Below, piece after piece: positions 1,859-37,607 of a stretch of 49,116 nt of DNA. The stretch spans positions 1-49,116 of the forward strand of contig CALXEN010000030.1 in the NCBI GenBank assembly GCA_944387325.1, written 5' to 3'. Each line of letters starts with the position of its first letter. Position 1 is the stretch's first letter. This DNA is from an uncultured Clostridia bacterium (lineage in GTDB: Bacteria > Bacillota > Clostridia > Oscillospirales > Ruminococcaceae). The position numbers and the translations under genes are program-made. The notes under the pieces were generated by a model. The model made no database searches and was not told where the DNA came from. It worked only from the letters and a program-made list of their open reading frames with translations.

Positions 1859-3235
1859 TTACAGGTCCAGCTCTTCCAGTCGGAGGAGGGCCTTGATGTA
1901 GATCTCCAGACCCATGAGGAGATCCTCAAACCGGGCCCCCTCGTTGGCGCCGTGCATGGGACCGGCAAAATCCGGCAGGACCAGGTCCTGGACCTCGGGG
2001 CCATAGCTGACGGCACAGGGGAAGTGCCGGGCGTAGGTGCCGCCGCCCATGAGGAAGGGCTGAGCCTGACGGCCGGTGACTTCGTTGTAGGTGTCCAGCA
2101 GGGCCCGGATGGCAGGATGATCCGGCTCAATGTAGAAGCAGTCATTTCCTTCCACTTCCTCCAGATGAGCGGCCGTACCGCAGGCAGCCTCCATCTGCCG
2201 GGTCAGGGTCTCCACATTGGTGGAGGTGACATACCGGCAGTCGAAGGTCTGGCAGATGACCCCGTCCTTCATGGAGATGACCCCGCCGATGACGGTAAGG
2301 GGGGTGAACTTTCCGTCGTCGGCCTGGATCCCCACTCCCCTGCCGTAGTAATCCTTGTGGAGATTATGGAGCACCTTCAGGTAGGCGGTCTCCGCCTCAT
2401 TGCAGACGCCGCTCTCCAGCAGGCAGTCCACCACCAGGCCGATAGCGTTGACGGTGCCCTCGGGGAGGGCCGCATGGCCGCTCTTCCCCTGGCCCAGAAC
2501 GGCGGTGGTATCCTGGTCCACCTTTTCCAGGGTGATGCCCGGGGTCTGCTTCAGCTGGTCCATCGGCACCTTCACCAGTGCCCTGGCCCGGTCGGGCACG
2601 GCATTGTTGGCCACGCCCCCCTGGAAATCCAGGATGGCCCCATCACAGACCGGGCTGCAGATGTTACCGGAGAAATGGCCCTTCTCCCCGTTGCAGAGAG
2701 GGAACTCCGCATCGGGGGTGAAGAGGAAGGCGGGGGCGGGATAGTTGGCCTGATAATACTCCACATCGGTCATGCCGCACTCCTCGTCACAGCCGAAGAT
2801 GGCCCGGATGGGGTACTTCAGCTCCATCCCGCTCTCCTTGATGTACTTGAGGGCGTAGAGGATGAGGACCGAGGGGCCCTTGTCGTCGGCAATGCCCCGG
2901 CCCAGAAGCCAGCCTTCCCGCTGGCGAAGGGTCCAGGGATCGGCGTCCCAGCCGTTCCCCACCGGTACCACGTCCAGGTGGGTGATGGTGGCAATATATT
3001 TTTCCGGATCCTTCCCCGGCAGCTGGACCCACCCCAGGTATCCCTGGGCGTCATAGGTCTCAAAGCCCATCTCCCGGGCCATGGCCAGCCCCTCGTTCAG
3101 GGCATTCCGGGGCCCCTCCCCATAGGGTGCGCCGGGGAGGGCGGGGCCCTTGACGCTGGGCACCGCCACGATCCGGGTCATATCCCGCAGGATGTTCTCC
3201 CGGTTTTGTTCAATAAATTCCTTTACAGACTGCAT
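1859..3235 (-). CDS. pepV: M20-family dipeptidase (PepV/Sapep-like)
   Basis: 458 aa with the metal and catalytic motifs HLDVVPVG, GRGIADDKGP and FGCDEECG. Confidence 0.88.
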   Translation of the reverse strand: MQSVKEFIEQNRENILRDMTRIVAVPSVKGPALPGAPYGEGPRNALNEGLAMAREMGFETYDAQGYLGWVQLPGKDPEKYIATITHLDVVPVGNGWDADPWTLRQREGWLLGRGIADDKGPSVLILYALKYIKESGMELKYPIRAIFGCDEECGMTDVEYYQANYPAPAFLFTPDAEFPLCNGEKGHFSGNICSPVCDGAILDFQGGVANNAVPDRARALVKVPMDQLKQTPGITLEKVDQDTTAVLGQGKSGHAALPEGTVNAIGLVVDCLLESGVCNEAETAYLKVLHNLHKDYYGRGVGIQADDGKFTPLTVIGGVISMKDGVICQTFDCRYVTSTNVETLTRQMEAACGTAAHLEEVEGNDCFYIEPDHPAIRALLDTYNEVTGRQAQPFLMGGGTYARHFPCAVSYGPEVQDLVLPDFAGPMHGANEGARFEDLLMGLEIYIKALLRLEELDL

Positions 3236-3362
3236 ACTCCATTACTCCCGTTCAAGACCCGCCGGGCAGGTCCGTAGTCTGGGGGCCGCTCCCCTTCCGG
3301 GCCGTCCCCTTACAGGTGGATTATAGCACACTCCCTTTAAAAAGGAAATGGGAGGGCAGGCC

Positions 3363-4127
3363 TCAGGGCTGCATCTCGGTCAAATACTCCCAGTACCGCT
3401 TGGGAAGGTTGCTTCTTTGGAGGGCTTCGTTCCTCCGTTCCTCAATGGTGAGGGCCTTGAAAAACGCCTTCCACAGGTCCTGATACTGCTTTTCCCGGGC
3501 TTCAGGGGTGGGGAGGATCACCGGCTTTTCAAACTCCAGATACTCCACCTTGCCGCCCCGTTTCAGAAGGGCCAATCCATGGCTGTTGTCAAAGATGACA
3601 AAATCCTCCTGGGGGAGCCGGTCGCAGAAGTGGTTTTGCAGAAGGGGCAGCACACAGTGGTGAGGCCGGATGACGGCGCCCAGCATCCCCTCCCGCTCCT
3701 GGAACCGGAGCACCTCCAGGTATTTTCCGCTTTCCCGGGAGACCTGCCGCTCCAGCTCCACCACCGCCGCCACATCCGGGTGCGCCAGCTGCCGGGCTGC
3801 CTGGGGGCCTTCCCGGTAGCAGAGTTCCAGGAACCGGAGGAGTTTCATCTCCTTGTCCGGGCTGTCGTTCAGGAAGGCATACATGACCAGCCGCCGGATC
3901 CAGGGTCCCATCTTTCGGATGCTGGCCTCCACCCTCTGGGCCTGGCCGGGGTGGGTGACGATCTCCACCTGGGGAAAGAGGGTGGTCTCGGGCCGGAGAA
4001 GCTGCCAGATATCGGTGGGCAGTTCCCGGTTTTGGTAGCTCTGAAAGACACAGCAGAGGAATCCCTCGTAGCTGCCGTCATACCAGTAAATGAGATCCTT
4101 GGGGATCAGAGCTTTTCTGCCAGGCAT
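3363..4127 (-). CDS. DUF4130 / TIGR03915-type probable DNA metabolism protein (partner of the radical SAM below)
   Basis: 254 aa. Its start overlaps the upstream radical SAM gene by 22 nt. Family assignment is from memory of the conserved two-gene pairing. Confidence 0.8.
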   Translation of the reverse strand: MPGRKALIPKDLIYWYDGSYEGFLCCVFQSYQNRELPTDIWQLLRPETTLFPQVEIVTHPGQAQRVEASIRKMGPWIRRLVMYAFLNDSPDKEMKLLRFLELCYREGPQAARQLAHPDVAAVVELERQVSRESGKYLEVLRFQEREGMLGAVIRPHHCVLPLLQNHFCDRLPQEDFVIFDNSHGLALLKRGGKVEYLEFEKPVILPTPEAREKQYQDLWKAFFKALTIEERRNEALQRSNLPKRYWEYLTEMQP

Positions 4128-5470
4128 TTCACTGCTTCCTCCTCCACGGTTTTGGCGGCCAGGGCGGGAGCCATCCCCTCCTCGGCCAGCTGCTGCACCT
4201 GGGGCGCCGCCCCCAGCAGGCCGGAGGGGTCCTCAAACAAACTGGTCTGGTAACTGCCGTACCCGAAGGCCTTGGGGTCCAGCAGGGACCGGACCACCAT
4301 CTCCCTCCGGGGGGAATGAGGGCCGGCGTATCCTTTGCAAGTAATGAAGTATTGGGCCCGCTTCAGCACCACCCCCAGCCGCCGCAGCCCCTCCCAGTCC
4401 AGGGTCTGCTGGCGGCGGGCGGTGCGGATTCGCCGGGCGGACTTAGGCCCGATCCCCGGCACCCGGAGGAGCATCTCAAAGGGGGCTTTGTTTACATCCA
4501 CCGGGAAGAGATGGTAGTGGTTCACCGCCCAGTTGCATTTGGGGTCCAGATAAGGGTTGAAGTTGGGGTTTTCCCGGTCCAGAATCTCCTCTGCCTGAAA
4601 ATCATAGTACCGCAGCAGCCAGTCCGCCTGGTAGAGGCGGTGCTCCCGGAGCAGCGGCGGCTTGGTGTCCGCCGCCGGGAGGCGGGAATCCTCCACCACC
4701 GGAATGTAGGCGGAGAAAAAGACCCGTTTCAGTTGGTATTTCTTGTACAGTTCCTGGGTCAGGTTGAGGATTTGGTAATCGCTTTCCGGGGTGGCCCCTA
4801 CGATCATCTGGGTGGATTGGCCCGCCGGAGCAAACTTGGGAGCCCCCCGGTAGAGCTGGAGCTCCTGCCGGTTTTCCTGGGCGGTCCGGGCGATCTGCCC
4901 CATAGGCCGGAAGATGGCCTTTCTACCCTTGTCGGGGCAGAGCAGGTTGAGGCTGGTCTCGCTGGGGAGCTCGATGTTCACCGACAGCCGGTCCGCCAGC
5001 AGGCCCAGCCGCTGCACCAGGGCCGGGTCCGCCCCGGGGATGGTTTTGGCGTGGATATACCCGTTGAAGCCATACTCTCCCCGGAGAAGTTCCAGGGCGT
5101 GGATCATCTGCTCCATGGTGTAGTCCGGATTTTTCAGGACGGCGCTGGAGAGAAACAGCCCTTCTATATAATTCCGGCGGTAAAATTCAATGGTGAGCCG
5201 GGCCAGCTCCCGGGGGGTAAAGGCGGCCCGGGGCAGGTCGTTGGACCGGCGGTTGACGCAGTATTTGCAGTCGTAGGCGCAGATGTTGGTGAGGAGCACC
5301 TTCAGAAGAGAGACGCAGCGGCCGTCCGCCGTGAAGGTGTGGCAGAGCCCGGCGTTCACCGTGTTCCCGATCTTCCCCGGCTGCCCCTGCCGTTCCGACC
5401 CGCTGGAGGTGCAGGCCACATCGTATTTGGCGCTGTCGGCCAAGATCCGGAGCTTTTCCAGCAGTTCCAT
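4106..5470 (-). CDS. putative DNA modification/repair radical SAM protein (TIGR03916-like)
   Basis: Radical SAM triad CAYDCKYC, family-typical N-terminus LADSAKYDVAC, and a C-terminal helix-hairpin-helix LLRVPGIGPKSARRI. ATG 5470 (MELLEKL) follows GGGAGAGAGG. The ORF-track start at 5500 has no RBS. Confidence 0.88.
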   Translation of the reverse strand: MELLEKLRILADSAKYDVACTSSGSERQGQPGKIGNTVNAGLCHTFTADGRCVSLLKVLLTNICAYDCKYCVNRRSNDLPRAAFTPRELARLTIEFYRRNYIEGLFLSSAVLKNPDYTMEQMIHALELLRGEYGFNGYIHAKTIPGADPALVQRLGLLADRLSVNIELPSETSLNLLCPDKGRKAIFRPMGQIARTAQENRQELQLYRGAPKFAPAGQSTQMIVGATPESDYQILNLTQELYKKYQLKRVFFSAYIPVVEDSRLPAADTKPPLLREHRLYQADWLLRYYDFQAEEILDRENPNFNPYLDPKCNWAVNHYHLFPVDVNKAPFEMLLRVPGIGPKSARRIRTARRQQTLDWEGLRRLGVVLKRAQYFITCKGYAGPHSPRREMVVRSLLDPKAFGYGSYQTSLFEDPSGLLGAAPQVQQLAEEGMAPALAAKTVEEEAVKCLAEKL

Positions 5471-5604: not shown

Positions 5605-6237
5605 TCACCACCGGGCCTTGGTCTCCACCACTTTCCCGGCAATGTAAAGGTGGGAAAGCTCCTCCCCCCGGAGGATCTTGTCCTCATACTGGGGATTGAA
5701 GGCTTTCAGGACCACAGCGTTCCCACGGCGGATGAACTTTTTCAGGGTGCCCTCGCCCCCTTCGTCCCCGTAGACCATAACCCCCAGGTCCCCGTCGTCC
5801 AGGGTGTTCTGGCGGTGGACCAGAGCCAGGTCTCCGTCAAAGATCCGGGGCTCCATGCTGTCCCCCTTCACCACCAGGAAGAAGTAGTTGTCCGGGTCCT
5901 TGACGCAGGCATACTCGGTGCCGTAGTCCTCCTCGAAGGCCAGGCCGCCGTACCCCGCCTTGACGGTGCCGATGACCGGGATAAGGCACTGCTTCCTCCC
6001 CCCGAAGAACCGTTCCTCCGCCTGGAGGGTCTCGGGCCCGGGCTGGTTGAAGCCCAGCAGGGTGTCGGTGGTGGTCTGGAGGACTTCGGCGATCTTGGCC
6101 ACCATATCGGGGGAGGGAGTGGCTTTATCCTTTTCCCACTTCCCCACCGCCTGCTGGGTGACCCCCAACCGGCTGGCCAGTTCTCCCTGGCTCATCTTCT
6201 GTGCCTTCCGGGCACTACGCAGAAATTCCGAAAACAT
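5605..6237 (-). CDS. LexA-like S24 autoprotease repressor with an XRE-type HTH
   Basis: 210 aa. HTH QGELASRLGVTQQAVGKWEKDK, Ala-Gly cleavage site VKAGYGG, catalytic Ser in VVKGDSMEP and Lys in GTLKKFIR. RBS GGAGGTG lies 7 nt upstream of the ATG. Confidence 0.9.
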   Translation of the reverse strand: MFSEFLRSARKAQKMSQGELASRLGVTQQAVGKWEKDKATPSPDMVAKIAEVLQTTTDTLLGFNQPGPETLQAEERFFGGRKQCLIPVIGTVKAGYGGLAFEEDYGTEYACVKDPDNYFFLVVKGDSMEPRIFDGDLALVHRQNTLDDGDLGVMVYGDEGGEGTLKKFIRRGNAVVLKAFNPQYEDKILRGEELSHLYIAGKVVETKARW

Positions 6238-6266
6238 CTGCTGCCACCTCCTTCTGTCTTGGTTTT

Positions 6267-6296
6267 ATTATACAACCATTGGTAGTTTCATGTAAA
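6267..6296 (-). promoter_or_regulatory. promoter of the LexA-like gene
   Basis: On the minus strand: TTTACA (6296-6291), 18-nt spacer, TATAAT (6272-6267). Confidence 0.5.
6272..6286. promoter_or_regulatory. candidate operator O1 (ACAAC-N5-GTAGT)
   Basis: ACAACCATTGGTAGT lies within the spacer and touches the -10 of the repressor promoter. It shares ACAACC with the sites at 6365, 6376 and 23672. Confidence 0.5.
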
Positions 6297-6335
6297 GATA
6301 TTTTTGAAATTTTTCATTTTTTTCTCAGTTTTATC

Positions 6336-6364
6336 TTGACTTTCCTCAGGAAAGCCACTATAAT
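6336..6364 (+). promoter_or_regulatory. near-consensus sigma70 promoter of the small membrane protein gene
   Basis: TTGACT (6336-6341), 17-nt spacer, TATAAT (6359-6364). Confidence 0.65.
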
Positions 6365-6390
6365 ACAACCATAACACAACCATTTGTTGT
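6365..6390. promoter_or_regulatory. candidate operator O2 (half-site plus ACAAC-N5-GTTGT)
   Basis: ACAACCAT (6365-6372) followed by ACAACCATTTGTTGT (6376-6390), immediately downstream of the -10 and covering the likely transcription start. Confidence 0.55.
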
Positions 6391-6412
6391 TAATTCTGCG
6401 GAGGTAAGTAAA

Positions 6413-6658
6413 ATGAAACAGATACTTTGCAAGCTGGGTATTGTTCTGGGCGCTCTGGTATTTTGGCTGACCATGGTCTCCACTGCCTACGCCACCGTTT
6501 CCCTGCCCGCCGGGCTGCTGGTGCTGGCTTTCTCCGCTGTTACCATCCGGGTCTGCTGGCTGGAGCTGATCCATCTGGAGATCTCTTCCCGCCGTGCCAA
6601 GGTCCTGGCCCGGCGGAAGGTGCGGGCTGCCGTCTCCTGCAAGACCACCGCCGCCTGA
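6413..6658 (+). CDS. hypothetical 81-aa protein with two TM helices and a basic C-terminal tail
   Basis: GGAGG lies 8 nt upstream of the ATG. Hydrophobic segments LGIVLGALVFWLTMVSTAYA and LPAGLLVLAFSAVTIRVCWL, then tail SSRRAKVLARRKVRAAV. Has its own promoter and terminator. The overlapping ORF 6427-6957 looks off-frame (R/P/G-rich). Confidence 0.6.
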   Translation: MKQILCKLGIVLGALVFWLTMVSTAYATVSLPAGLLVLAFSAVTIRVCWLELIHLEISSRRAKVLARRKVRAAVSCKTTAA

Positions 6659-6750
6659 TTTGCCTTTGCCCCCGGGGAATGTGGGAGCGGGGCTCATGTC
6701 CCCCAGGGTCTGCCCCCTGTCCGCCCGCCTTCCCTTATATAAATGAAGAA

Positions 6751-6795
6751 CGGCATGGTCCCTCCGCCAGGGGGAGCCATGCCGCTTTTTGTTTT
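6751..6795 (+). terminator. intrinsic terminator
   Basis: CGGCATGG...CCATGCCG stem followed by CTTTTTGTTTT. It sits between the small ORF and the convergent pyrophosphatase gene. Confidence 0.75.
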
Positions 6796-6803
6796 ATCTT
6801 GGT

Positions 6804-8459
6804 TCAGGTCTGCTCGAAAACCTTGAGGATGGCAGGGATCAGCTGCTTTTTCCGGCTGACCACCCCGGGCAGGATCGCCAGGTCTCCCTTCCACTCCACC
6901 TGTCCGAAGGCCTCCTCCACCACCTCCCGGGCGCCGGCACCGGCCATCATCAGATAGGTGGTGGTATCACGCACACTGGTGAACATATAGAAGAGGAGAG
7001 GGACATTCTGCTTCTGCATGGCGATGGGGAGATAGCTCCGGAGAAGGTCCTGGGCAGCCTCCCGGTTTTTCTGGGTCATGTAGCTGCCCTGACCCACTCC
7101 GAACCGGTTTTCTCCGCTGGTGAAGATTTTGAAATCCTGCAGGAACACTTCCTCTGGGGATTTTCCTTCCAGGTCTCCCCCGGCTTCAAACATCTGCTGG
7201 GCGTACTCCTCCATATCCACCCCGGCGATGGTGGCCAGAGCGGTGGCAGCCTGCTCGTCCTGGGGAGTGCAGGTGGGGCTGCGGAACATGAGGGTATCGC
7301 TGAGAATGGCGGACAGCATGACCCCGGCAATCTCTCTTGGGATCTCCACCATATTCTCCAGGAACATCTGGAAGATGATGGTGCAGGTGCAGCCTACCGG
7401 CATATTCCGGAAAAAGACGGGGCCGGTGGTTTCCAGGCTGCCCAGCCGGTGGTGGTCGATGATCTCCAGGATATCCGCCCGGTCATACCCTTCCACCGCC
7501 TGGGTCCGCTCGTTGTGGTCCACCAGGATCAGCTGTTTGGGATGGAGATTCAGCAAATTCCGGCGGCTGATGACCCCGCAGTACTTTCCCTCACTGTCCA
7601 GAATGGGGAAATACCGGTGCCGCACCTGGGCCATGATCTTCCGGGCGTTTTCCACCGGGGTGTTGACGCTGAAGGTAAGGAGGTTCTGGGTGGTCATGTA
7701 GTGCCGGACCGGAGCCGCCTGGCTGATGAGACGGCTGGCCTCGTAGGTGTCGTAGGGGGTGCGGATAATGGCCACGTTCCGCTCCTCCGCCAGCCGCAGG
7801 ATGGTCTGGGGCACCTGGGCGTTCATGCAGATGACCAGGATGGAGGCCCCCAGCTCGATGGCGCAGAACTGGCTCTCGTACCGGTTGGACAGCAGTACAA
7901 TGTCTCCCGGCTTCACCAGCCCCTCCATGCTCTCGGGGGTGCCGGCATTGGCATGGAGCCGTCCGGTCTCCACCCGGCCGTTTTCATCCCCCACCACCAG
8001 GGTCCCGTCCAGGGTGGCTACCAGATTTTTGTAGCTGGTCCTGGCCTGGGCCAGGGTGGCACGGTCAAAGTTCCCCATGTTGGCGGTGGCGGTGTCCGTG
8101 ATGGTGGTGGCGCCGCTCAGTGCCCGGACCTTGGCCGTGATGACCAGGGTGTCGATGACCCGGTCCCTCAGGATGCTCCAGGCATCCTTCAGGCTGGTCT
8201 CCTCGTCAATGGGTTCCTCCACCCGGATGTCGATGTCCTCCACCTGAGGGCTCACGTCGGTGACCAGCCGGGGGGCCGGCACGCCGAAATGGTTGAGGGC
8301 AAACTCGGTCTCTCGGTTGATCTCCCCGGCCCGGCAAGCCACACATTCCATCTCGCTGGCAGCGGTTTTCAGGTAAGCATAGCTGATGGCGGCACAGATG
8401 GAATCGGTGTCCGGATTCCGGTGTCCCATCACATATATCTTTTTGTTGGTGGGTTCCAT
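6804..8459 (-). CDS. ppaC: CBS-domain family II (DHH) inorganic pyrophosphatase
   Basis: 551 aa. DHH motifs HRNPDTDS, LVDHNE and IIDHHRLG, with an inserted regulatory (CBS/DRTGG-type) region between the DHH and DHHA2 parts. Confidence 0.88.
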   Translation of the reverse strand: MEPTNKKIYVMGHRNPDTDSICAAISYAYLKTAASEMECVACRAGEINRETEFALNHFGVPAPRLVTDVSPQVEDIDIRVEEPIDEETSLKDAWSILRDRVIDTLVITAKVRALSGATTITDTATANMGNFDRATLAQARTSYKNLVATLDGTLVVGDENGRVETGRLHANAGTPESMEGLVKPGDIVLLSNRYESQFCAIELGASILVICMNAQVPQTILRLAEERNVAIIRTPYDTYEASRLISQAAPVRHYMTTQNLLTFSVNTPVENARKIMAQVRHRYFPILDSEGKYCGVISRRNLLNLHPKQLILVDHNERTQAVEGYDRADILEIIDHHRLGSLETTGPVFFRNMPVGCTCTIIFQMFLENMVEIPREIAGVMLSAILSDTLMFRSPTCTPQDEQAATALATIAGVDMEEYAQQMFEAGGDLEGKSPEEVFLQDFKIFTSGENRFGVGQGSYMTQKNREAAQDLLRSYLPIAMQKQNVPLLFYMFTSVRDTTTYLMMAGAGAREVVEEAFGQVEWKGDLAILPGVVSRKKQLIPAILKVFEQT

Positions 8460-10671: not shown

Positions 10672-11898
10672 ATGGGATACAACATTGTGGTAGGACAGAG
10701 CGGCGGCCCCACCGCCGTCATCAACTCCAGTCTGGCGGGGGTCTATGAAACCGCCAAAAAGCTGGGAGTGGAAAAAGTATATGGAATGAAGTTCGGCATC
10801 GAAGGGTTTCTCCAGGATATGCTGGTGGATCTGGATTCCCTTCTGAAAGGGGACATGAGCATCGAATTGCTGAAGCGGACCCCCTCCAGCTATCTGGGAT
10901 CCTGCCGGTACAAGCTGCCCGAATCCGAGCAGGATGAGGAGGTCTACCGGACCATCTTTGCCATACTGAAGAAGTACGAGATCCAGGCCATGTTCTATAT
11001 CGGCGGGAACGACAGCATGGATACCATTGCCAAGCTGTCCCGGTACGCCCAGACCCTGAACAGTCCCATACGGTTCATTGGGGTGCCCAAAACCATTGAC
11101 AACGACCTGATGCTCACCGACCACACCCCCGGCTACGGCAGCGCTGCCAAGTACATCGCCACCATCCTCAAGGAGATGATCTGCGACTCCACCGTATACA
11201 ACATCCGGAGTGTGACGGTGGCCGAGATTATGGGCCGCCACGCAGGCTGGCTGGCGGGAGCTGCCAGTCTGGCCGCCGGGGATGACGGAGAGGGGCCTGA
11301 CATCATTCTTCTGCCGGAAGTTCCCTTTGACCCGGAGGTATTCCTGAAACGGGTGGATGATCTTCAACGGTCCAAATCCAACGTGATCATTGCCGCCAGC
11401 GAGGGGGTAAAGACCCGGGAAGGCACCTACCTCTGCGACCTGGTGAGCACTGCCGGCCAGCTGGACGCCTTCGGCCACAAGGCCATCCTCAGCGGCACCA
11501 GCCGGTACCTGAGCGACCTCATTGGTAAAAACCTGGGCTGCAAGAGCCGGGCTATCGAGTTCAGCACCCTGCAGCGGTGTGCCAGTCATCTGGCCAGCCG
11601 AAACGACATTACCGAGGCGTACATGGTGGGCGGCGCCGCTGTGAAAGCCGCTCTGGAAGGTCAGACCGGAAAGATGAGCGCTCTGAAGCGGCTCCACAAT
11701 CATCCCTACCTCTGCGTCAGCGAAATGGTGGACGTACAGGCGGTGGCCAACCTGGAAAAGAAGGTCCCGCTGGAGTGGATCACCCCCGACGGCACCCATG
11801 TAACCAAGGAATTCCTCCACTACGCCCGCCCCCTGATCCAGGGAGAATTGAGTCCCATGTTTGTCAACGGTGTTCCTCTTCATATGCATCTGGACTGA
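10672..11898 (+). CDS. pfp: phosphofructokinase, PPi-dependent type by sequence determinants (copy 1)
   Basis: 408 aa. N-terminus GQSGGPTAVINSS, then IGGNDSMDT (Asp at the position equivalent to E. coli Gly104) and GVPKTIDNDL (Lys at position 124). Confidence 0.88.
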   Translation: MGYNIVVGQSGGPTAVINSSLAGVYETAKKLGVEKVYGMKFGIEGFLQDMLVDLDSLLKGDMSIELLKRTPSSYLGSCRYKLPESEQDEEVYRTIFAILKKYEIQAMFYIGGNDSMDTIAKLSRYAQTLNSPIRFIGVPKTIDNDLMLTDHTPGYGSAAKYIATILKEMICDSTVYNIRSVTVAEIMGRHAGWLAGAASLAAGDDGEGPDIILLPEVPFDPEVFLKRVDDLQRSKSNVIIAASEGVKTREGTYLCDLVSTAGQLDAFGHKAILSGTSRYLSDLIGKNLGCKSRAIEFSTLQRCASHLASRNDITEAYMVGGAAVKAALEGQTGKMSALKRLHNHPYLCVSEMVDVQAVANLEKKVPLEWITPDGTHVTKEFLHYARPLIQGELSPMFVNGVPLHMHLD

Positions 11899-12006: not shown

Positions 12007-12151
12007 GATATTCCGCATTGTGGAACTTTCCAGCAATCTGCTCAATGAGCAAGGGCCGCAATTGGAAAATTAAACGAAGACTGGTAGAATAAAGTCGTTC
12101 AGAAAAAAGGGTAAGCCTCCCTCGGAGGCATGGTTGGAAAGGGGAACATTT

Positions 12152-13375
12152 ATGGGCAAAAACGCAATCGTGGGCCAGTCCGGCGGACCCACCTCGGTGA
12201 TCAACGCAAGCCTGGCCGGGGTTTTCCAGAGCTGTCAAGCCCGGGGCGCCCAGGTGGTTTACGGAATGTGCAACGGAGTGGCCGGCCTGCTGGAAAAGCG
12301 GGTGGTAGATCTCTCCAGCCAGCTGAAGGACCATATGGATGTGGAGCTGCTCAAGCGGACCCCTTCCAGCTTCCTGGGATCCTGCCGGTACAAACTGCCC
12401 CCCATTGAGGAAGGGCGGGAGGTCTACGAGAAGCTCTTTGACATTCTGAAAGAGCTGGACATCGGCTACTTCTTCTACATTGGCGGCAATGACAGTATGG
12501 ACACCATCGGAAAGCTGGCCGACTACGGCAAGCTGGTGGGGAGCGACATCCGGTTCATGGGGGTGCCCAAGACCATCGACAACGACCTGATGATCACCGA
12601 CCACACCCCCGGCTACGGCAGCGCTGCCAAGTACATTGGGGTGGTCATGAAAGAGATCATCCGGGACGCCACCGTCTACGGCACCAACTATGTGACCATT
12701 GTGGAGATCATGGGCCGGAATGCCGGCTGGCTCACCGCCGCCGCTGCCCTGGCCCGGGCCGAGGACTGCGAGGGGGTGGACATGATCTGCCTGCCCGAGA
12801 TTCCCTTCAACGTGGACCGGTTCGTGGAGAAGGTGGCCGCCATGCAGGCCAAAAAGCCCAGCATCGTTATCGCCGTCTCCGAGGGGGTCAAGCTGGAGGA
12901 CGGCCGGTATGTCTGCGAGCTGGCGGATGACGTCCATGCGGTGGACGCCTTCGGTCACAAGGCCCTCACCGGCACCGCCCGGTTCCTGGCCAACACCTGC
13001 GCCCGCCGTCTGAACACCAAGACCCGGTGCATCGAGCTCTCCACCCTGCAGCGGTGTGCCGGACACCTCACCAGCCGCACCGACATTACCGAAGCCTACC
13101 AGGTGGGCGGCGCCGCTGCCAAGGCCGCTTTTGAGGGGCATACCGGGGAGATGGTAGCCATCAAGCGGGTCTCCAACGCCCCCTACCAGAGCACCACCGA
13201 ACTCCATCCCATCAGCGAGGTGGCCAACCTGGAGAAGAAGGTCCCCCTGGAATGGATCAACGACACTCACACCGATATGCTTCCGGCGTTCCTGGAATAC
13301 GCCCGGCCCCTGATCCAGGCCGAACTGACCCCCATTTATGTGGACGGTCTCCCCTGCCACATCTGTATGAACTGA
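12152..13375 (+). CDS. pfp: phosphofructokinase, PPi-dependent type by sequence determinants (copy 2, tandem paralog)
   Basis: 407 aa from ATG 12152 (RBS GGGGA 6 nt upstream; the track start 12134 is a TTG). Motifs GQSGGPTSVINAS, IGGNDSMDT and GVPKTIDNDL. Collinear with copy 1. Confidence 0.88.
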   Translation: MGKNAIVGQSGGPTSVINASLAGVFQSCQARGAQVVYGMCNGVAGLLEKRVVDLSSQLKDHMDVELLKRTPSSFLGSCRYKLPPIEEGREVYEKLFDILKELDIGYFFYIGGNDSMDTIGKLADYGKLVGSDIRFMGVPKTIDNDLMITDHTPGYGSAAKYIGVVMKEIIRDATVYGTNYVTIVEIMGRNAGWLTAAAALARAEDCEGVDMICLPEIPFNVDRFVEKVAAMQAKKPSIVIAVSEGVKLEDGRYVCELADDVHAVDAFGHKALTGTARFLANTCARRLNTKTRCIELSTLQRCAGHLTSRTDITEAYQVGGAAAKAAFEGHTGEMVAIKRVSNAPYQSTTELHPISEVANLEKKVPLEWINDTHTDMLPAFLEYARPLIQAELTPIYVDGLPCHICMN

Positions 13376-13450
13376 GGCAGGCTTACCAAACCAACCCCCA
13401 AGGTGTATTGTGTATTCGATATGCTTTGATCTCTCCTGTGTAAAAGGGAA

Positions 13451-13492
13451 AAGACCCACACCAAATGGTGCGGGTCTTTTCTCGTTTATTTT
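13451..13492. terminator. bidirectional terminator between pfp copy 2 and the convergent 980-aa gene
   Basis: AAGACCCACACC-AAAT-GGTGCGGGTCTT followed by TTCTCGTTTATTTT. Confidence 0.75.
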
Positions 13493-13497
13493 AGGAT

Positions 13498-16440
13498 TCA
13501 GAAATACCAGCTGGGGAAAAGGCGAAGGTGCTCCACCCAGCTCTGGGCCACCGGCAGCCCGGAAAGGACCGGGAAATAGAGGACGAAGAGGAGGGCGGCG
13601 ACCCCCGTCAGCCCTATCATCCAGCCCCGGGCCAGCCGGGGACGGAGAGCCGAGAGCCGGCCCACCCAGACCGTCAGGGCCAGGAGGGCAAAGAGGGCAC
13701 TGGCCCAGTAATGATAGAGGAAGGTGCACCGGGTAACCAACACCCAGGGCAGTAGCTGGGAGAGGAAAAAGATCACCACCAACCGGGTCTTGGACGTCAT
13801 CCCCTCCCGGATGGCGTGGGCTCCCAGGGCCAGAAGAGCGGCCAGGCCGCCCCAGGCCAGCACCGGACTGTAAAAGCCTGCTATGCTCCCCCACTGTCCG
13901 GCTTCCAGGTTTCCGTTCAGGTAGTACCAGACAGGGCGCAGGTCAAAGAACCAGGTGTACCAGGGGCTCTCGTAGGGATGGGTGGCAGTGAGCTGGCTGT
14001 GGTACCGGAACATCCCCACCTGGGTATTCCACCAGTCGGTGAGAGTAAATCCGTTCTCTCCCCAGGCGTAGGGCAGATAGCTGGCCAGGTAGATGGCCAG
14101 GGGGACCACCACAAAGCAGACCGTTCCCCCAAAAACGGCCAGGGCAGCCTCCCGGCGGAAGGTGGCGGGTTTCTGGAGGTACCGCTCCCAGAGGGTCCAG
14201 AAGTAGACTACCGCCAGCCCGGCCCCGGCATAGATCCCGGTCCACTTGCTGGCGCAGCCCAGGCCGAAGGCGATCCCCCCCAGCACCATGGGCAGAACGG
14301 CCCGATGGACCCCCGCCTCCAGCACCCGGTCCCGGTACCAGAGCATACACCCTGCTCCCAGCAGGATGAAGAAGGCGGGATAGGTGTCGATGGTGGCCAT
14401 CCGGCTCTGGGTATACCGCATGAAATCCAGCCCCAGGAGCAGGGCCCCGAAGAAGGAAGCCTCCCGGCTGCGGGTGAGCCGCCGGGCCACCCAGTAGAAG
14501 AGGGGGACCAGCAGCACCCCGAAAAGGGCCCCGAAGAACCGCCAGCCAAAACCGGTCATTCCGAAAAGGGCGATGCCCAGCATGATGAAGTCCTTCCCCA
14601 GGGGTGGATGAGTGGTCTCGTAGATGGACATCCCCTTAAGTTCCTCGTATCCGGTGCGGGCGTGGTAGATCTCGTCAAAATAAAAGCTGTTCAGCTGGCT
14701 GATGGAATCCGGCACCAGGGACTGCTCGTCCAGAAGGGCGGTATCCTGGTCCGCCGTCACCGCCAGCAGGTTCCCTTCCCCGTCCCGGAAGGCCACCTCC
14801 ATCACCCGGGCATTTTCCAAAAGGAGGCTGTATTGGCTTTCTCCCGAGAGGGTGTACCGCTGCCAGGTAAAGCACTGGCCCTGGTCCAGCTCCGCCTCCA
14901 GAACGGCCTGGCCCTGGCTGTCCAGGATCCAAAGGGTCCCGCCCTGGGAGGTCTGGATCTGGGGATAGACCCACAGCTCCTGGGCCTCTCCCTCCAGGGT
15001 AAGGTCCAGCCACAGGGTGGTCTGGCCCACCCGGTCCTCCACCGTCTGGGGCGCACTGGTGTCTCCCAGGTAGGTGAAGCCCAGGATCCCCACCCCCAGG
15101 GTGAGAACTCCCAGGGCCAGCAGCTCCTTCCGGGTCCAGGGCGGCATTTTCTCCCCCAATTCGGGGCGCTTTTCCTTCAGGGGACGGCGTTTTCCCTCCA
15201 GAACCAGGCAAAGAGCGATCCAGAGCAAAACACCCCAGAGGAGGGTCACTCCCAGGCCGCAGAGCCGGACCATGGTCTGGGAGAGAGCACTGGACATCCA
15301 CTCATCTTCCGTTCCCACCAGGGTGTAGACCACCGCCAGATTCAGGCAGCCAAAAAAGGACAGGCCCGCTCCGCAGGCGGCCAGCCGCCAGTCCTTGCTG
15401 CGGGCGGCAGCCAGAAAGACAAAGATGATCCCCACCAGGAGGTACCGTTCATGCATCCGGTGGCCGAAGGTAAAGATTCCCACCAGATAAACCGCCGCCA
15501 GCAAGACCGGGCTGAACCGCCTGTTCCGATAACTCTGCCAGGCCAGCCAGCAGAGCCCCAGAGTGAGGAGCAGGATGGCCCCGGTTCCCCACTGCTGCCA
15601 GGTAAAGCAGAGGAAGTTCTCCTCCTGGGGCCTCCAGTTTCCCCCCAGAGCGGCAATGAAGTTGAATCCGTTCACACTTGCGTAGGGGTAGCTGGTGATG
15701 GTACCGAAGTACTGTTCCCAGGTTTTGGAGAGGACCTGTGTGCCAAAAAAGGGCAGTCCACAGGCCAGCACCACCCCTACTGCCAGGGCGGCGCCTCCCA
15801 AAAGATTCTTCAGCCCCCGGGCCAGATCCTCCCGGAGGGGAAACAGGAAAGCCAGCGCCAGCACCGGGCCCGCCAGAAGAGCCTGGGGCTTTAGGGCCAG
15901 GGCCAGGCCGTAAAGAGCAGCGGCCGGCAGGTACCGGCGCCGCTCCAAAAGGGCAAAGGCGGCTCCCAAGGTCAGGATCATGATGCTGTCCACCTGCTTC
16001 CAGACGGCGGTACTGTAAACCAGTGCCGGGTTGAAAGCCACCAGGGCAGCCAGCCGCAAAGCCAGGGCAGGGGCCATGATCCGCCTGGCCTCCCGCCAGA
16101 CCAGCCAGGCCAGGCCGCAGACGGCCAGGGCGGGGAGCAGTCCCAGAGCCAGGAAACTCAAAGGGGTGTTATACTCCAGCCGGAACAGCCCGATGAGGAC
16201 AGCCGCCGGGTAAAAGGCCAGGATCCCGCCGGGAGGATAGTCGGAAAAGTTCTCAATATAGAAGTTCCCCGGCCCCTCCTGGAGCAGCCGGGTGACCCAA
16301 CTGTAAAAGCTGCCCATATCATAGGGGTAGCTCTCTGTCACCATCTGCAATCCCATCTGTAAGAGAAAAGCCCCCGCCAGTATCATCGCCAGCGAGGTCT
16401 TTTCCTTCCTTTGAGATTGGTTCAGCATCCGCCCCGCCAT
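13498..16440 (-). CDS. 980-aa polytopic membrane protein: N-terminal GT-C-like domain fused to a C-terminal PMT (GT39)-like domain
   Basis: N-terminal half is multi-TM with SDYPPGG, LKPQALL and GHRMHERYL. A soluble stretch of about 140 aa follows. C-terminal half has FYFDEIYHA and THPPLGKD (PMT hallmark DE and HPPLxK motifs) plus further TM helices. Confidence 0.85.
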   Translation of the reverse strand: MAGRMLNQSQRKEKTSLAMILAGAFLLQMGLQMVTESYPYDMGSFYSWVTRLLQEGPGNFYIENFSDYPPGGILAFYPAAVLIGLFRLEYNTPLSFLALGLLPALAVCGLAWLVWREARRIMAPALALRLAALVAFNPALVYSTAVWKQVDSIMILTLGAAFALLERRRYLPAAALYGLALALKPQALLAGPVLALAFLFPLREDLARGLKNLLGGAALAVGVVLACGLPFFGTQVLSKTWEQYFGTITSYPYASVNGFNFIAALGGNWRPQEENFLCFTWQQWGTGAILLLTLGLCWLAWQSYRNRRFSPVLLAAVYLVGIFTFGHRMHERYLLVGIIFVFLAAARSKDWRLAACGAGLSFFGCLNLAVVYTLVGTEDEWMSSALSQTMVRLCGLGVTLLWGVLLWIALCLVLEGKRRPLKEKRPELGEKMPPWTRKELLALGVLTLGVGILGFTYLGDTSAPQTVEDRVGQTTLWLDLTLEGEAQELWVYPQIQTSQGGTLWILDSQGQAVLEAELDQGQCFTWQRYTLSGESQYSLLLENARVMEVAFRDGEGNLLAVTADQDTALLDEQSLVPDSISQLNSFYFDEIYHARTGYEELKGMSIYETTHPPLGKDFIMLGIALFGMTGFGWRFFGALFGVLLVPLFYWVARRLTRSREASFFGALLLGLDFMRYTQSRMATIDTYPAFFILLGAGCMLWYRDRVLEAGVHRAVLPMVLGGIAFGLGCASKWTGIYAGAGLAVVYFWTLWERYLQKPATFRREAALAVFGGTVCFVVVPLAIYLASYLPYAWGENGFTLTDWWNTQVGMFRYHSQLTATHPYESPWYTWFFDLRPVWYYLNGNLEAGQWGSIAGFYSPVLAWGGLAALLALGAHAIREGMTSKTRLVVIFFLSQLLPWVLVTRCTFLYHYWASALFALLALTVWVGRLSALRPRLARGWMIGLTGVAALLFVLYFPVLSGLPVAQSWVEHLRLFPSWYF

Positions 16441-17840
16441 TACAGTCTGGCCAGCTTGGGGCCCTGGGCGGTGTCGGTGACGCTCCAGCCCAGACCGGTA
16501 AGCTGCTCCCGGATGGCGTCCGCCCGGGCCCAGTCCTTGGCCTTCTTGGCGGCGGACCGCTCATCCACCAGAGCGGTGACTTCAGCAGGGATCTCCTCTT
16601 CCTTCTTCCGGTTATAGAGAAGGCCCAGTACCCCGGTCAGCTCGTCCATGGTATGTGCGGCCTCCTCCAGAGCGGCCTTGGAGGCCTTGGAGGAAAGGGT
16701 GTTGATCTCCCGGACCAGGTCGAAGATGGCGGCCAGGGCGTCCGGGGTGTTCAGGTCGTCATCCATAGCCTTGATGAACTTCTCCCGGGCGGCGGCGCAC
16801 TTTTCTGTCAGGGTGTTCTCCCCTTCCCCGGCGGCATGGGCCAGGGCAAAGTCCAGGTTCTCCCGGCAGTTGTAAAGCCGCTCCAGGCTGTTCTTGCAGC
16901 TTTCGATCAACTCCACGGTGTAGTTCAGGGGCATACGGTACCCGGCGGTGAGCATGAAATACCGGATGGGCTCGTACCCGTACAGGTCGGCTACATCCCG
17001 GACGGTGAAGAAGTTGTGGAGGCTCTTGGACATCTTCTGGTTGTCCACGTTGATGAAACCGTTGTGCATCCAATACCGGGCAAAGGTGCATCCGTTGGCG
17101 CACTCGGACTGTGCGATCTCGTTCTCATGGTGGGGGAAGATCAGGTCCTGGCCGCCGGCGTGAAGGTCGATGGTCTTGCCCAGGTGGGTGCGGCTCATGG
17201 CGGAGCACTCAATGTGCCAGCCGGGGCGGCCCATACCGTAGGGGCTCTCCCAGGCGGGCTCCCCGGGCTTGGCGGCCTTCCAGACGGCAAAGTCGGCGGG
17301 GTCCTCCTTCAGGTCGTCCTCCATCTGGCTGCGGAGCTCCCGGTTGCCGCTTTCCAGGTCCTCCAGGTTCAGGTGGCTCAGCTTCCCGTAGCCGGGGTCG
17401 CTCTTCACCCGGAAGTACACATCCCCGTTCTTGGCCACATAGGCGTGGCCGGACTCCACCAGGTCCTTCACAATATCCAGGATCTGGGCGATGTGCTCGG
17501 TGGCCCTTGGCTGGACGGTGGGGACCTTGCAGTTGAGACCGGCAGCGTCCTTCAGGTACTCTGCCTCAAACCGCTGGGCCACCTCCTTCATGGAGGTGCC
17601 CTCCTCCTGGGCCTTGGTGATGAGCTTATCGTCGATATCGGTGATGTTGCTCACGTAGAGCACCTTGTTTCCCCGGTATTCCAGGTACCGGCGGAGGGTG
17701 TCAAAGACGATGAGGGGACGGGCGTTCCCAATATGAATATAGTTGTACACCGTGGGGCCGCAGACATAGATGCGGTATTCGCCGGGCACCTGGGGGACAA
17801 ACTCTTCCTTTTTCCGGGTAAGGGTGTTGAAAATTTCCAT
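16440..17840 (-). CDS. cysS: cysteine--tRNA ligase
   Basis: 466 aa with HIGNARP (HIGH) and KMSKS motifs. The stop overlaps the next ATG as TAATG. Confidence 0.96.
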   Translation of the reverse strand: MEIFNTLTRKKEEFVPQVPGEYRIYVCGPTVYNYIHIGNARPLIVFDTLRRYLEYRGNKVLYVSNITDIDDKLITKAQEEGTSMKEVAQRFEAEYLKDAAGLNCKVPTVQPRATEHIAQILDIVKDLVESGHAYVAKNGDVYFRVKSDPGYGKLSHLNLEDLESGNRELRSQMEDDLKEDPADFAVWKAAKPGEPAWESPYGMGRPGWHIECSAMSRTHLGKTIDLHAGGQDLIFPHHENEIAQSECANGCTFARYWMHNGFINVDNQKMSKSLHNFFTVRDVADLYGYEPIRYFMLTAGYRMPLNYTVELIESCKNSLERLYNCRENLDFALAHAAGEGENTLTEKCAAAREKFIKAMDDDLNTPDALAAIFDLVREINTLSSKASKAALEEAAHTMDELTGVLGLLYNRKKEEEIPAEVTALVDERSAAKKAKDWARADAIREQLTGLGWSVTDTAQGPKLARL

Positions 17841-36699: not shown

Positions 36700-37607
36700 T
36701 TCTGGATCTTCTCGATACTTTCTACAAAATACTGCTGTTTCTTGAACACAGTGTCCAAAATCAGAGAGAGATATTTCACCACCAGGGTCATGATGGCAAA
36801 CAGGCCGCTGAACCCGCAGGTGATGACGAACATGGTGGTGGTCCACCCTTCAATGGGATGGCCGGCCACCGTGACCGCCAAAGTATAAACGAGCTCTGCC
36901 AGAGCCAGCACCAGCATGGCCAGGGTGATGCCAAAGCTGATCCGGTACCCGGCGGTGGTGTAAAGGAGCAGACTGTTGACCCCCAGGTCCAGATCCTGGA
37001 AGTGGACGGCCTGGCCCTGGTATTCCAAAGTTCCCATCTTCAGGCCGCTGGCGGCGTAAGCCGCTTTCCGGTAGGGCAGATAGGCGCTGACCGCATGGAC
37101 CTTGTTCACCGCCCGGCGGGAGACCAGGCGGAAAGCCTCGGTGCGAAGGCGGTAGGCGGAACCGCTGTACCGGTTAAAGAGCCGGTAGAAGAGGCGGCTC
37201 CTTCCCCCGCAGCGGGAGGGGCAGACGTTTACAATGTCATTCCCTTCCATGGCCTTCCGGTAGGCTTCCCAGATGAGGGAGGAATCCCAGTTCATTCTGA
37301 TATCGTCGAACTCATACACATAGTCTCCAATGGAGATATCCAGCCCGGCGTTCATGCACTGTTCCACTCCCTGGCGGAGGCTCATGTGGAGGATGGTCAG
37401 GGGCTTGGTCATCTGGGCGGCAAACTCCCGCAGCCGTTCCAGGGCGGAGGCGGGGGCGCAGTCATTGACCACTACCAGCTCATATTGGGCGAAATGCTCC
37501 TCCAGCCGGTCAGAGAGCTCGGTGAAAAAGCCCTGGACATCCCCCCCCTCCGGGCCCAGATAGACCACGGCGGAGACAAAATTCTTTTCTTTTTCCTGAT
37601 TATTCAT
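36696..37607 (-). CDS. GT2 glycosyltransferase with two C-terminal TM helices (GtrB/CsbB/DPM1-like architecture)
   Basis: 303 aa from ATG 37607. Divergent GT-A core (FVSAVVYLGPE, VVVNDCAP, DYVYEFDD), then two C-terminal TM helices, ISFGITLAMLVLALAELVYTLAV and MFVITCGFSGLFAIMTLVV. Confidence 0.75.
   Translation of the reverse strand: MNNQEKEKNFVSAVVYLGPEGGDVQGFFTELSDRLEEHFAQYELVVVNDCAPASALERLREFAAQMTKPLTILHMSLRQGVEQCMNAGLDISIGDYVYEFDDIRMNWDSSLIWEAYRKAMEGNDIVNVCPSRCGGRSRLFYRLFNRYSGSAYRLRTEAFRLVSRRAVNKVHAVSAYLPYRKAAYAASGLKMGTLEYQGQAVHFQDLDLGVNSLLLYTTAGYRISFGITLAMLVLALAELVYTLAVTVAGHPIEGWTTTMFVITCGFSGLFAIMTLVVKYLSLILDTVFKKQQYFVESIEKIQK

Follow-up and report, generated by a model that had tools for sequence, protein, structure and literature searches.

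A fused GT39-type and GT87/ALG6-like glycosyltransferase chain in gut Clostridia

Why would a gut bacterium carry two different membrane-embedded glycosyltransferases of the GT-C fold class within a single polypeptide, and what might such a chain glycosylate? The question is raised by a gene on contig CALXEN010000030.1 (assembly GCA_944387325.1), whose 49,116 nucleotides are the stretch analysed here and are referred to below as the window. The host is a relative of Gemmiger from the chicken gut, and the window's sequence was detected in chicken and other gut metagenomes. The gene lies on the minus strand at 13498..16440, stop codon included, and encodes 980 amino acids (aa) with ~23 transmembrane (TM) helices. 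An earlier interpretation of the same DNA, made from its letters and hereafter called the sequence-only reading, had proposed that an N-terminal lipid-sugar-dependent transferase is joined in this chain to a protein O-mannosyltransferase (PMT) of family GT39, and that the two act consecutively. GT39 enzymes are known from eukaryotes and Actinobacteria, and to our knowledge protein O-glycosylation from lipid-linked donors in Clostridia is essentially unexplored. We find it very probable (near 0.9) that the gene is real and conserved and that its product is a glycosyltransferase of two modules, dependent on lipid-linked sugars and working on the outer side of the membrane. Further, we propose, at a probability of about 0.45, that its PMT module initiates on Ser/Thr of exported proteins, that its N module extends the glycan, and that the fusion pairs the two GT-C bodies.

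Architecture and spread of the fused chain

The domain content of the protein is the simplest argument for two modules. Hidden Markov model searches with Pfam return different families for the two halves and none that spans the whole protein: GT87 (PF09594) matches aa 68-320 in the first half with 42.3-45.0 bits (cutoff 25), while the second half is matched by PMT (PF02366, aa 628-790, 87.2 bits, cutoff 22.7), by PMT_4TMC (PF16192, aa 800-978, 67.2 bits, cutoff 32.4) and also by PMT_2. The central claim of the sequence-only reading, one chain with two different GT-C modules, is thereby upheld, and the motifs that it quoted (FYFDEIYHA, HPPLGK, DYPP, KPQ and HERY) are all located in the sequence. 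An AlphaFold2 (AF2) model of the whole chain, built on 44 homologues, has a predicted local distance difference test score (pLDDT) of 90.7 and a predicted template modelling score (pTM) of 0.86, and the latter, computed over the whole chain, suggests a defined mutual arrangement of the modules.

The topology derived from the AF2 helices, hydropathy and loop charge places a short basic N terminus in the cytoplasm, followed by an N module of 12 TM helices (aa ~8-415) that ends inside, and by a PMT-type module of ~11 TM helices from aa 437 to the C terminus. The positive-inside rule is obeyed throughout this predicted topology, every cytoplasmic loop being rich in Lys and Arg, and all putative catalytic residues of both modules fall in outer loops. 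Where the sequence-only reading had expected a soluble, probably extracytoplasmic domain of about 140 aa to join the halves, the actual joint is a basic, predicted cytoplasmic linker of 21 residues (aa 416-436, GKRRPLKEKRPELGEKMPPWT; 15133..15195, minus strand, as for all features of this gene). Seven of its residues are Lys or Arg, and the model is least sure of itself here, with pLDDT falling to 68 in the block 421-430. Across a set of 58 fusions at 30-73% identity, which we use for all statements on conservation in fusions, the linker is also the least conserved segment (mean conservation 0.23, as compared with 0.38-0.51 in the modules). The soluble domain that had been taken for the connector sits instead inside the PMT module, after its first TM helix, and is discussed below.

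The fusion is widespread. An identical 980-aa protein is present in a public collection (P0001), and an independent DNA assembly (run X1) spans 13300-17049 without a gap, across the module joint. Of 181 homologues scored, 120 were listed, and nearly all of these are full-length proteins of ~960-1130 aa at 41-74% identity. A scan with one genome per species turned up at least 592 loci with a gene related to the protein in some part, and in the best 80, which were examined, the fusion is complete in every case (80/80, 30-73% identity). The hosts of these best 80 loci include Gemmiger, Subdoligranulum, Faecalibacterium, Allofournierella, Anaerofilum, Ruthenibacterium, Angelakisella, Christensenellales, Acetatifactor and other Lachnospiraceae, and isolates are among them (Gemmiger formicilis ATCC 27749 and Allofournierella massiliensis DSM 100451). 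Public annotation of the homologues is generic, as 'phospholipid carrier-dependent glycosyltransferase'.

The halves also occur as separate genes. A search of the full library with the N module returned 2509 relatives in three length classes: proteins of ~1000 aa that comprise the N module and PMT, proteins of ~1250-1430 aa with an extra ~240-aa N-terminal part ahead of both, and stand-alone proteins of 400-700 aa, which lie on contigs many times the gene length and one of which carries the source name 'Gpi18-like mannosyltransferase'. A metagenome scan seeded with stand-alone N modules yielded 80 loci, comprising 52 fused genes, 7 pairs of adjacent separate genes and 13 stand-alone N modules, with the remaining 8 cut by the contig end.

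The long variants form a group of their own (P0139, 1309 aa; P0175, 691 aa; open frames of 1290-1345 aa in loci such as L102, L107, L116 and L152) and may either include the PMT module (~1300 aa) or lack it (~650-700 aa). Their extension of ~240 residues has a hydrophobic, signal-anchor-like start, a soluble domain of ~170 aa with the pattern 'NGDFS/NGSFE...W' and an additional TM helix before the N module. The soluble domain has no Pfam match at E<0.001; we take it to resemble a carbohydrate-binding jelly roll of the CBM4/9 or CenC type.

Two modules with conserved catalytic-type motifs

Judged by its domains, motifs and predicted fold, the C-terminal module is a bona fide GT39/PMT-type GT-C enzyme, as the sequence-only reading had recognised from its hallmark motifs. 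Its first TM helix is formed by aa 437-455 (15076..15132; an AF2 helix with a Kyte-Doolittle value of 2.0) and its catalytic core by aa 566-980 (13501..14745). The closest fold match of this half is fungal Pmt4 (9i5k, E 2e-12, template modelling score (TM-score) 0.70 on the target), followed by yeast Pmt1/Pmt2 (6p25, E 2e-9 to 7e-9), and a sequence search of the Protein Data Bank (PDB) also finds Pmt4 (E 4.5e-8) and Pmt1 (E 1.4e-4). The module thus resembles yeast Pmt1, Pmt2 and Pmt4 and the mycobacterial Rv1002c in its PMT and PMT_4TMC domains, in fold and in the DE, Rx4D and Rx2-aromatic motifs, and like bacterial Pmt it has no MIR domain. On the NCBIfam equivalog for actinobacterial Pmt (NF058602), however, it scores 62.9 bits and fails the cutoff of 800, and by this measure it is a distant PMT subfamily and not an orthologue of actinobacterial Pmt. 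It further differs from the known enzymes by its fusion to a second GT-C module, by a β domain of ~110 aa between its first TM helix and the DE motif, and by its host, which is a clostridium rather than an actinobacterium or eukaryote.

The residues on which PMT catalysis depends appear to be retained. Mutagenesis of Mycobacterium tuberculosis Pmt (MtPMT) has shown that D74 of the DE motif, D176 of the Rx4-6D motif in outer loop 2, R441 and Y444 are needed, D74 and D176 being essential, and R441 and Y444, like R649 and F652 of ScPmt1, are required or lie in the donor/acceptor pocket (PMC12331936). Mapping by motif rather than by superposition, the counterparts of D74, of D176 and of R441 with Y444 are D589-E590, R680-x4-D685 and R835-x2-W838, respectively. 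The DE motif (D589-E590 in FYFDEIYH, 14671..14676), which corresponds to D74-E75 of MtPMT and to D77 of ScPmt1, is invariant and stands directly ahead of a juxtamembrane helix at 590-602 in the AF2 model. Both residues of R680-x4-D685 (14386..14403), the latter being the putative second catalytic-site Asp in outer loop 2, are likewise invariant, whereas in R835-P-V-W838 (13927..13938), in a late outer loop, R835 is conserved to 91% (Lys in four sequences) and W838 to 93%. HPPLGK (aa 611-616, 14593..14610), of which H611, P612, P613, G615 and K616 are invariant, is one of the two most conserved peptides picked by the genome scan. Altogether D589-E590, H611-PP, K616, R634, R680, D685, K732, H814, H821, R904 and H910 are unchanged in all 58 fusions.

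The β domain occupies aa ~456-565 (14746..15075), with strands assigned by DSSP between aa 476 and 563, and is predicted to be extracytoplasmic. It belongs to an outer loop 1 of 134 residues that is strongly acidic (22 Asp or Glu against 4 Lys or Arg). W526 and E548 do not vary in this loop, and neither does D571-E572, another pair of acidic residues. No Pfam family matches the domain; in a search with the whole-protein model it gave only weak fold matches to carbohydrate-binding domains (8x8h, E 0.17; 3nqh, E 0.23). Since the separate PMT gene of locus L153 (527 aa) aligns with aa 452-980 of the window protein, β domain included, the domain is best described as an outer loop 1 insertion of this PMT subfamily. 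A variation on this region is seen in another split operon, L092, whose PMT gene (2034-4490) encodes 818 aa. There the PMT_2 match starts at residue 446 instead of ~180, and the region before the core is therefore ~260 aa longer than in the window protein, the extra residues probably forming additional extracytoplasmic domains.

The N module (aa 1-415, 15196..16440) is a 12-TM GT-C protein of the GT87/GPI-MT-I/ALG6-like kind, and its family is less easily named. That this half is a separate transferase of the type using polyprenyl-phosphate sugars, as had been suggested, is supported by its PF09594 match, by fold matches of its own and by the stand-alone genes. Modelled alone it reaches a pLDDT of 94, with juxtamembrane helices at 39-55 and 70-86 in the first outer loop. 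The best fold match is Candida glycosylphosphatidylinositol (GPI) mannosyltransferase I (GPI-MT-I, GT50; 9wno, E 1.8e-5, query TM-score 0.62), followed by PimE (9dm7, E 2.7e-5; 9dm5, E 1.4e-4; TM-scores 0.53-0.63, on the query 0.53) and ALG6 (GT57; 6snh, E 5.5e-5, query TM-score 0.66). ALG3 and ArnT follow. Overall, TM-scores are ~0.5-0.66, and the E-values for 9wno, 9dm7/9dm5, 6snh and 9s6r run from 2e-5 to 4e-4. By these Foldseek E-values the module is no closer to GT87 structures than to those of GT50 and GT57. Sequence comparisons are similarly divided. The PF09594 match is absent in roughly half of the homologues, many members falling under the GT87 threshold; the window protein has no Pfam Alg6_Alg8 (PF03155) match at E<=1, and in that family its relatives P0165 (28.7 bits) and P0134 (24.5 bits) come out just at the cutoff of 25; and NCBIfam holds no family for the N half. 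Searched against the PDB as a single sequence the N half finds nothing, whereas an N-module profile finds GPI-MT-I (E 8e-11, aa 109-237), no PimE, and, at a marginal E of 0.04, ALG6 over aa 28-369 with the motifs in register. On the modelled fold we therefore place the N module in the GT-CA subclass, to use the term of the PimE paper, without a clear family, its GT87 membership being formal.

The likeness to ALG6/ALG8 and Gpi18-like enzymes that the sequence-only reading had drawn proves real in both motifs and fold. In the profile alignment the segment from D41 to W48 falls on ALG6 'GDFEAQRHW', DYPP on 'LDYPPL', K184 and KPQ on 'FKQ', and HERY on 'HEK'. If an 18-residue tag is assumed, the ALG6 Asp, at residue 87 of 562, would be D69, the catalytic base. 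Both ALG6/ALG8 and GPI-MT-I (Gpi14/PIG-M) are eukaryotic enzymes of the endoplasmic reticulum that act on lipid-linked oligosaccharide or GPI, substrates not expected here.

PimE, a GT87 α-1,2-mannosyltransferase that uses polyprenol-phosphate-mannose, provides the comparison at the level of function. The first of its juxtamembrane helices has D58 at its tip, and this residue has been equated with the catalytic Asp of ALG6, ArnT and PglB; Q163, K195 and W319 are essential and H321/H322 contribute, K195 binding the donor phosphate and H322 contacting it (PMC12041525). Outer loop 1 of the N module contains both D41 (16318..16320), the putative catalytic base, where the first juxtamembrane helix starts, and DYPP (aa 67-70, 16231..16242). 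Q149-V-D151 (15988..15996) lies in outer loop 2, K184-P-Q186 (15883..15891) would supply the phosphate-binding Lys, and H330-E-R-Y333 (15442..15453) lies in the outer loop between TM helices 9 and 10. D41, Q149, K184 and H330 thus follow one another in the order of PimE D58, Q163, K195 and H322 and with similar spacing, a correspondence drawn from order and spacing and not from a residue-level alignment or superposition. PimE and the N module also have in common the GT87 Pfam match, 12 TM helices, the juxtamembrane helices of outer loop 1 and a fold match that ranks second for the N module, but DYPP and HERY are ALG6-like instead, no PDB sequence match to PimE arises even by profile, and in fold the N module is just as near to GPI-MT-I and to ALG6.

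The conservation of these residues is complete. D41, W48, Y61, D67-YPP, Q149, D151, K184, P185 and H330-ERY are 100% conserved in the fusions, as are the outer-loop residues Y244, Y251, Y253, N260 and W269. D41, W48, Y61, DYPP, Q149, D151, K184 and HERY are also invariant in 80 further fused, split and stand-alone relatives, the metagenome set, for which DYPP, HERY and WGQVD had served as search patterns and D41, W48, Y61, K184 and N260 had not; K184 is invariant in all classes. The stand-alone N modules carry the same invariant set, as would be expected of an independent enzyme.

Donor synthases, proposed mechanism and alternatives

Some relatives supply what the window itself does not, a candidate source of the donor. 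In L153 the N module (406 aa), PMT (527 aa), a GT2 glycosyltransferase (~314 aa) and a GtrA-family protein (133 aa) are encoded in this order on one strand with overlapping ends. L148 has the order N module, PMT, GT2, and L092 the order PMT, GT2, N module. The same GT2 type stands directly downstream of fused genes in L057, L075, L097, L102, L105 (with GtrA) and L109, is convergent in L138, and occurs near stand-alone N modules in L085, L088, L091 and L094. Between loci these GT2 proteins are 54-62% identical. They match Synechocystis GtrB (5ekp) at E 1e-86 and the model of streptococcal PgfS with 280 bits, and dolichol-phosphate mannose synthase weakly, in the N-terminal part only (E 4e-18). 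Because the linked synthase is of the GtrB/PgfS type and not a Ppm1/DPM1 mannose synthase, the sugar need not be mannose, and glucose or an N-acetylhexosamine (HexNAc) is at least as likely as the donor sugar.

The L153-type gene set therefore resembles the multi-component transmembrane glycosylation systems of Gram-positive bacteria. In these systems (GtrA and GtrB or CsbB with a GT-C such as YfhO, GtlB or GacL; in streptococcal protein glycosylation, GtrB with PgtC2 and PgfS with PgfM1) a GT2 enzyme loads polyprenyl phosphate, the product is flipped and a GT-C transfers the sugar outside; L153 and L105 hold the whole set in one operon. The difference lies in the GT-C component. Each step of the known systems has a single GT-C, either a YfhO or a generic PMT_2 protein (PMC12041528, PMC8035078), while here two are fused and one is a true GT39. 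A Pmt-like nature of streptococcal PgtC2 was discarded, as the protein is assigned to the YfhO family (PMC12041528).

The window's own GT2 gene, at 36696-37631 on the minus strand, had been suggested as the supplier of the lipid-linked donor. It does have the GtrB architecture, matching GtrB sll0501 (5ekp) over the full length with E 3e-10, but it is ~22% identical to the linked type and lies 20 kb from the glycosyltransferase, so that this role is possible but not indicated; it is the only GT2 in the 49 kb, which hold no orthologue of the linked type. This protein scores 66 bits on the PgfS model, has a weak and partial Pfam GT2 match (26.6 bits, aa 48-110) and carries 'VVVNDCAP' at the site of the usual DDGS-like residues. 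Its gene overlaps the end of an upstream gene on the same strand for a FAD-dependent oxidoreductase of the DAO family (37600-38724).

We tentatively propose the following mechanism. That both modules are active, which of them acts first, that the acceptor is a protein and what the sugar is are matters of inference. A GtrB-type GT2 would form a polyprenyl-phosphate monosaccharide on the cytoplasmic face of the membrane and a GtrA-type protein would aid its crossing, both being encoded elsewhere in the genome. D589 of the PMT module would then act as the base in the transfer of a first sugar to Ser/Thr of proteins that are secreted or sit in the membrane. The N module would attach a second sugar, taken from a donor of the same type, with D41 serving as base and K184 and H330 contacting the phosphate. 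The fusion would hold the two GT-C bodies together as a pair similar to Pmt1-Pmt2. Consecutive transfer to one acceptor, which the sequence-only reading had also suggested, is plausible by analogy to Mycobacterium smegmatis, in which Pmt initiates O-mannosylation and the GT87 enzyme PimE elongates it (PMC12757957); the extension of Pmt-made O-mannose by PimE is the role that we propose for the N module.

Several considerations weigh against this proposal. The functions proposed for the family are read from sequence and models. The window and the 80 genome loci are mostly without glycosylation neighbours. The residue equivalences of the N module draw on the marginal ALG6 alignment (E 0.04) and on spacing, and DYPP, HERY and WGQVD owe part of their conservation in the metagenome set to having been used as search patterns. 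Many PMT_2-type GT-C enzymes of Firmicutes glycosylate teichoic acids or wall polysaccharides and not proteins (PMC8035078). Finally, pairing alone does not imply a second activity, because the GT87-like partner of mycobacterial Pmt is reportedly catalytically dead.

The alternative that survives best keeps both modules active but gives them a different target, namely a glycopolymer or glycolipid of the cell envelope (a teichoic-acid-like polymer, wall polysaccharide or lipoglycan), or two different acceptors. We regard this as a possible but somewhat doubtful explanation. GtlB, GttB, CsdD/F, GtsC and GacL decorate teichoic acids and polysaccharides from donors of the GtrB/CsbB type (PMC8035078), and the main substrate of PimE is a glycolipid (PMC12041525). 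The invariant Y244, Y251, Y253, N260 and W269 in the N-module outer loop are what would be expected for sugar binding, the weak fold matches of the β domain are to carbohydrate-binding modules, and the long variants add a further domain of carbohydrate-binding appearance. The L153 N module (6028-7245) even matches the NCBIfam model 'AZOBR_p60025 family cell surface glycopolymer formation protein', if weakly (30.6 bits against a cutoff of 150, aa 103-202), a match that hints at a wider bacterial GT-C superfamily annotated only by context. However, the C-terminal module matches the GT39-specific PF02366 and PF16192 and not just PMT_2, its top fold matches are protein O-mannosyltransferases, and it retains the residues that line the peptide and donor pocket of MtPMT and ScPmt, all of which argues against this alternative.

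An arrangement in which only the PMT module is catalytic, with the N module as a structural, dimer-like partner that perhaps binds donor or acceptor, appears improbable to us. Its precedent is a recent preprint (bioRxiv 10.64898/2026.07.15.738315, July 2026), in which mycobacterial Pmt pulls down and pairs with a GT87-like protein, Rv0051/ML2687c, without catalytic residues. In one sentence the preprint mentions Paenibacillus GT39 enzymes translationally fused to a GT87-family enzyme (V9WAU2), and it uses such Paenibacillus GT87-GT39 fusions to argue that PMTs dimerise in general. Eukaryotic PMTs are described as obligate dimers, and the pTM of 0.86 suggests that the two modules of the window protein pack together. 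The likeness of the mycobacterial complex to our protein, a GT39 enzyme physically paired with a GT87-like GT-C, ends at the active site, as the partner there is described as lacking catalytic residues whereas in the N module none of the catalytic-type residues has changed among fusions of 30-73% identity. Moreover, stand-alone N-module genes with no PMT in the locus have the same residue set, and several stand beside a GtrB-type synthase of their own (L085, L088, L091 and L094).

That the fusion is an artefact of assembly or sequencing which united two neighbouring genes, such as those that do exist as split adjacent pairs in L092, L093, L108, L143, L148 and L153, can be set aside almost completely given the identical protein in the collection, the gap-free contig of the independent assembly, the 80/80 fused loci from many genera and from isolates, and an AF2 model that is confident across the joint.

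The initiate-and-extend proposal can also be taken further: a doubly active chain that, together with a GtrB-type donor synthase, would make up a general pathway of protein O-glycosylation with glucose or HexNAc instead of mannose, common to many dominant gut Clostridia (Faecalibacterium, Gemmiger, Subdoligranulum, Lachnospiraceae and Christensenellales) and with the β domain selecting the acceptors. We consider this extended version speculative and, as a whole, rather unlikely. Domains of the MIR or WW-like kind have an acceptor-selecting role in other PMTs.

The locus and what the fusion may mean

The reading frame of the gene is secure, although its borders needed a small correction. The sequence-only reading had delimited it as 13498-16442, which includes the stop codon of the upstream cysteinyl-tRNA synthetase gene cysS (16440..17840, minus strand, 466 aa); the 980-codon frame itself is borne out, with its ATG at 16440-16438, its stop at 13500-13498 and hence its true end at 16440. 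The cysS TAA and this ATG have one base in common within the junction TAATG (16438..16442), and the same junction is found in L004 and L005. The closest relatives, P0002, L004 and L005 (the latter two at 73% identity), begin MEGRK... and are without the second Met of the window protein; the overlapping ATG is therefore the sole start kept in this subclade, and a downstream start at M5 was dismissed on the same grounds. Homology, domain matches and the structure model all fit the minus-strand frame; a long open reading frame that runs the other way (13816..15894) is a side effect of the G+C content of 63%.

Directly after the glycosyltransferase stop follows an intrinsic terminator (13441..13481), with a 15-bp stem at 13448-13481 and then CCCUUUU in the direction of the gene. 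Its folding free energy is -27.5 kcal/mol (z -6.8), and none of 200 shuffled sequences was equally stable when the strand was folded. A promoter-like site is located at 17910-17881, upstream of cysS, and a scan of the window with Rfam returned no match, including no T-box ahead of cysS. Because of the TAATG overlap, the 3' hairpin and the promoter-like site, cysS and the glycosyltransferase gene seem to form one transcription unit. The gene is probably expressed, as metatranscriptome contigs span 14625-15776, although carry-over of DNA is possible. The one metatranscriptome found to contain the window sequence has contigs within cysS and within the glycosyltransferase gene and none spanning 15876-16519.

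Two side observations concern this unit. The hairpin is flanked by U/T runs on both sides and lies between convergent genes, the glycosyltransferase gene on one side and, on the other, tandem phosphofructokinase (PFK) paralogues on the plus strand (10672-11898, 408 aa, and 12134-13375, 413 aa); it is likely a bidirectional terminator common to the convergent PFK gene. Within cysS, the contig depth of metatranscriptome run X17 rises from ~5 to 118-174 over ~320 nt (17003-17324); one X17 contig omits 150 nt (17045 to 17196), and the depth of DNA run X1 there goes from 11 to 20-24. Most likely the jump arises where cysS is conserved and short contigs of related strains accumulate.

The coupling to cysS, which the sequence-only reading had noted as unexpected, is real as an overlap but not as a functional link. 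Pfam finds tRNA-synt_1e, DALR_2 and CysS_C in the L001 homologue of the window cysS, and cysS lies upstream in most loci of the Gemmiger/Subdoligranulum/Faecalibacterium/Allofournierella clade that reach far enough (73-94% identity in the Gemmiger/Faecalibacterium clade). It is absent from L017, L030, L038, L039, L043, L048 and, except for L056 and L076, from L050-L083, and absent from the locus in Lachnospiraceae and Christensenellales. Only the window, L004 and L005 have the 1-nt overlap. Other loci have gaps that range from ~70-150 nt (85 in L001) up to more than 2 kb (L013). A functional tie to cysS was therefore rejected, the adjacency being limited to one clade and missing in distant relatives, and we read it as a gene order kept by descent, which in this strain would at most bring about constitutive co-expression. 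The order cysS-glycosyltransferase-PFK-PFK is repeated in many Gemmiger and Subdoligranulum loci at 71-91% identity. No glycosylation partner lies near the gene in the window, where the neighbours are RnfC, an M20 peptidase, a radical SAM enzyme, a DHH-CBS pyrophosphatase, BipA and the two PFKs, and the conserved neighbours of distant fused loci (response regulators, ABC transporters, a PHP phosphoesterase, topoisomerase and EF-Ts, most of them encoded on the other strand) were set aside as uninformative.

The components and the logic of this system are already known. What is new, as far as the literature found goes, is the fusion with both catalytic sets conserved, the loop-1 β domain, the linkage to GtrB/GtrA and the breadth across gut Clostridia. 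We found no paper on clostridial GT39/GT87 fusions or on the 'Gpi18-like mannosyltransferase' beyond the one preprint sentence on Paenibacillus, and no experiment on any member of the fused family; the preprint (bioRxiv 10.64898/2026.07.15.738315) does not treat Clostridia, the β domain, split operons or the GtrB/GtrA linkage.

The fusion is present at full length in at least 80 species-level genomes, among them highly abundant commensals of the human and animal gut, and glycobiologists may find in it a lead that is of use and open to test. Should both modules prove active, the chain would be a natural 'Rosetta stone' that ties a PMT to its extender, would support the view that PMTs generally work as GT-C pairs, and would provide a compact single-gene tool to install short O-glycans. 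The annotation 'mannosyltransferase' may name the wrong sugar for this PMT subfamily. Surface glycosylation of Faecalibacterium- and Gemmiger-type bacteria, to which the enzyme may contribute, bears on host recognition, phage adsorption and envelope stability.

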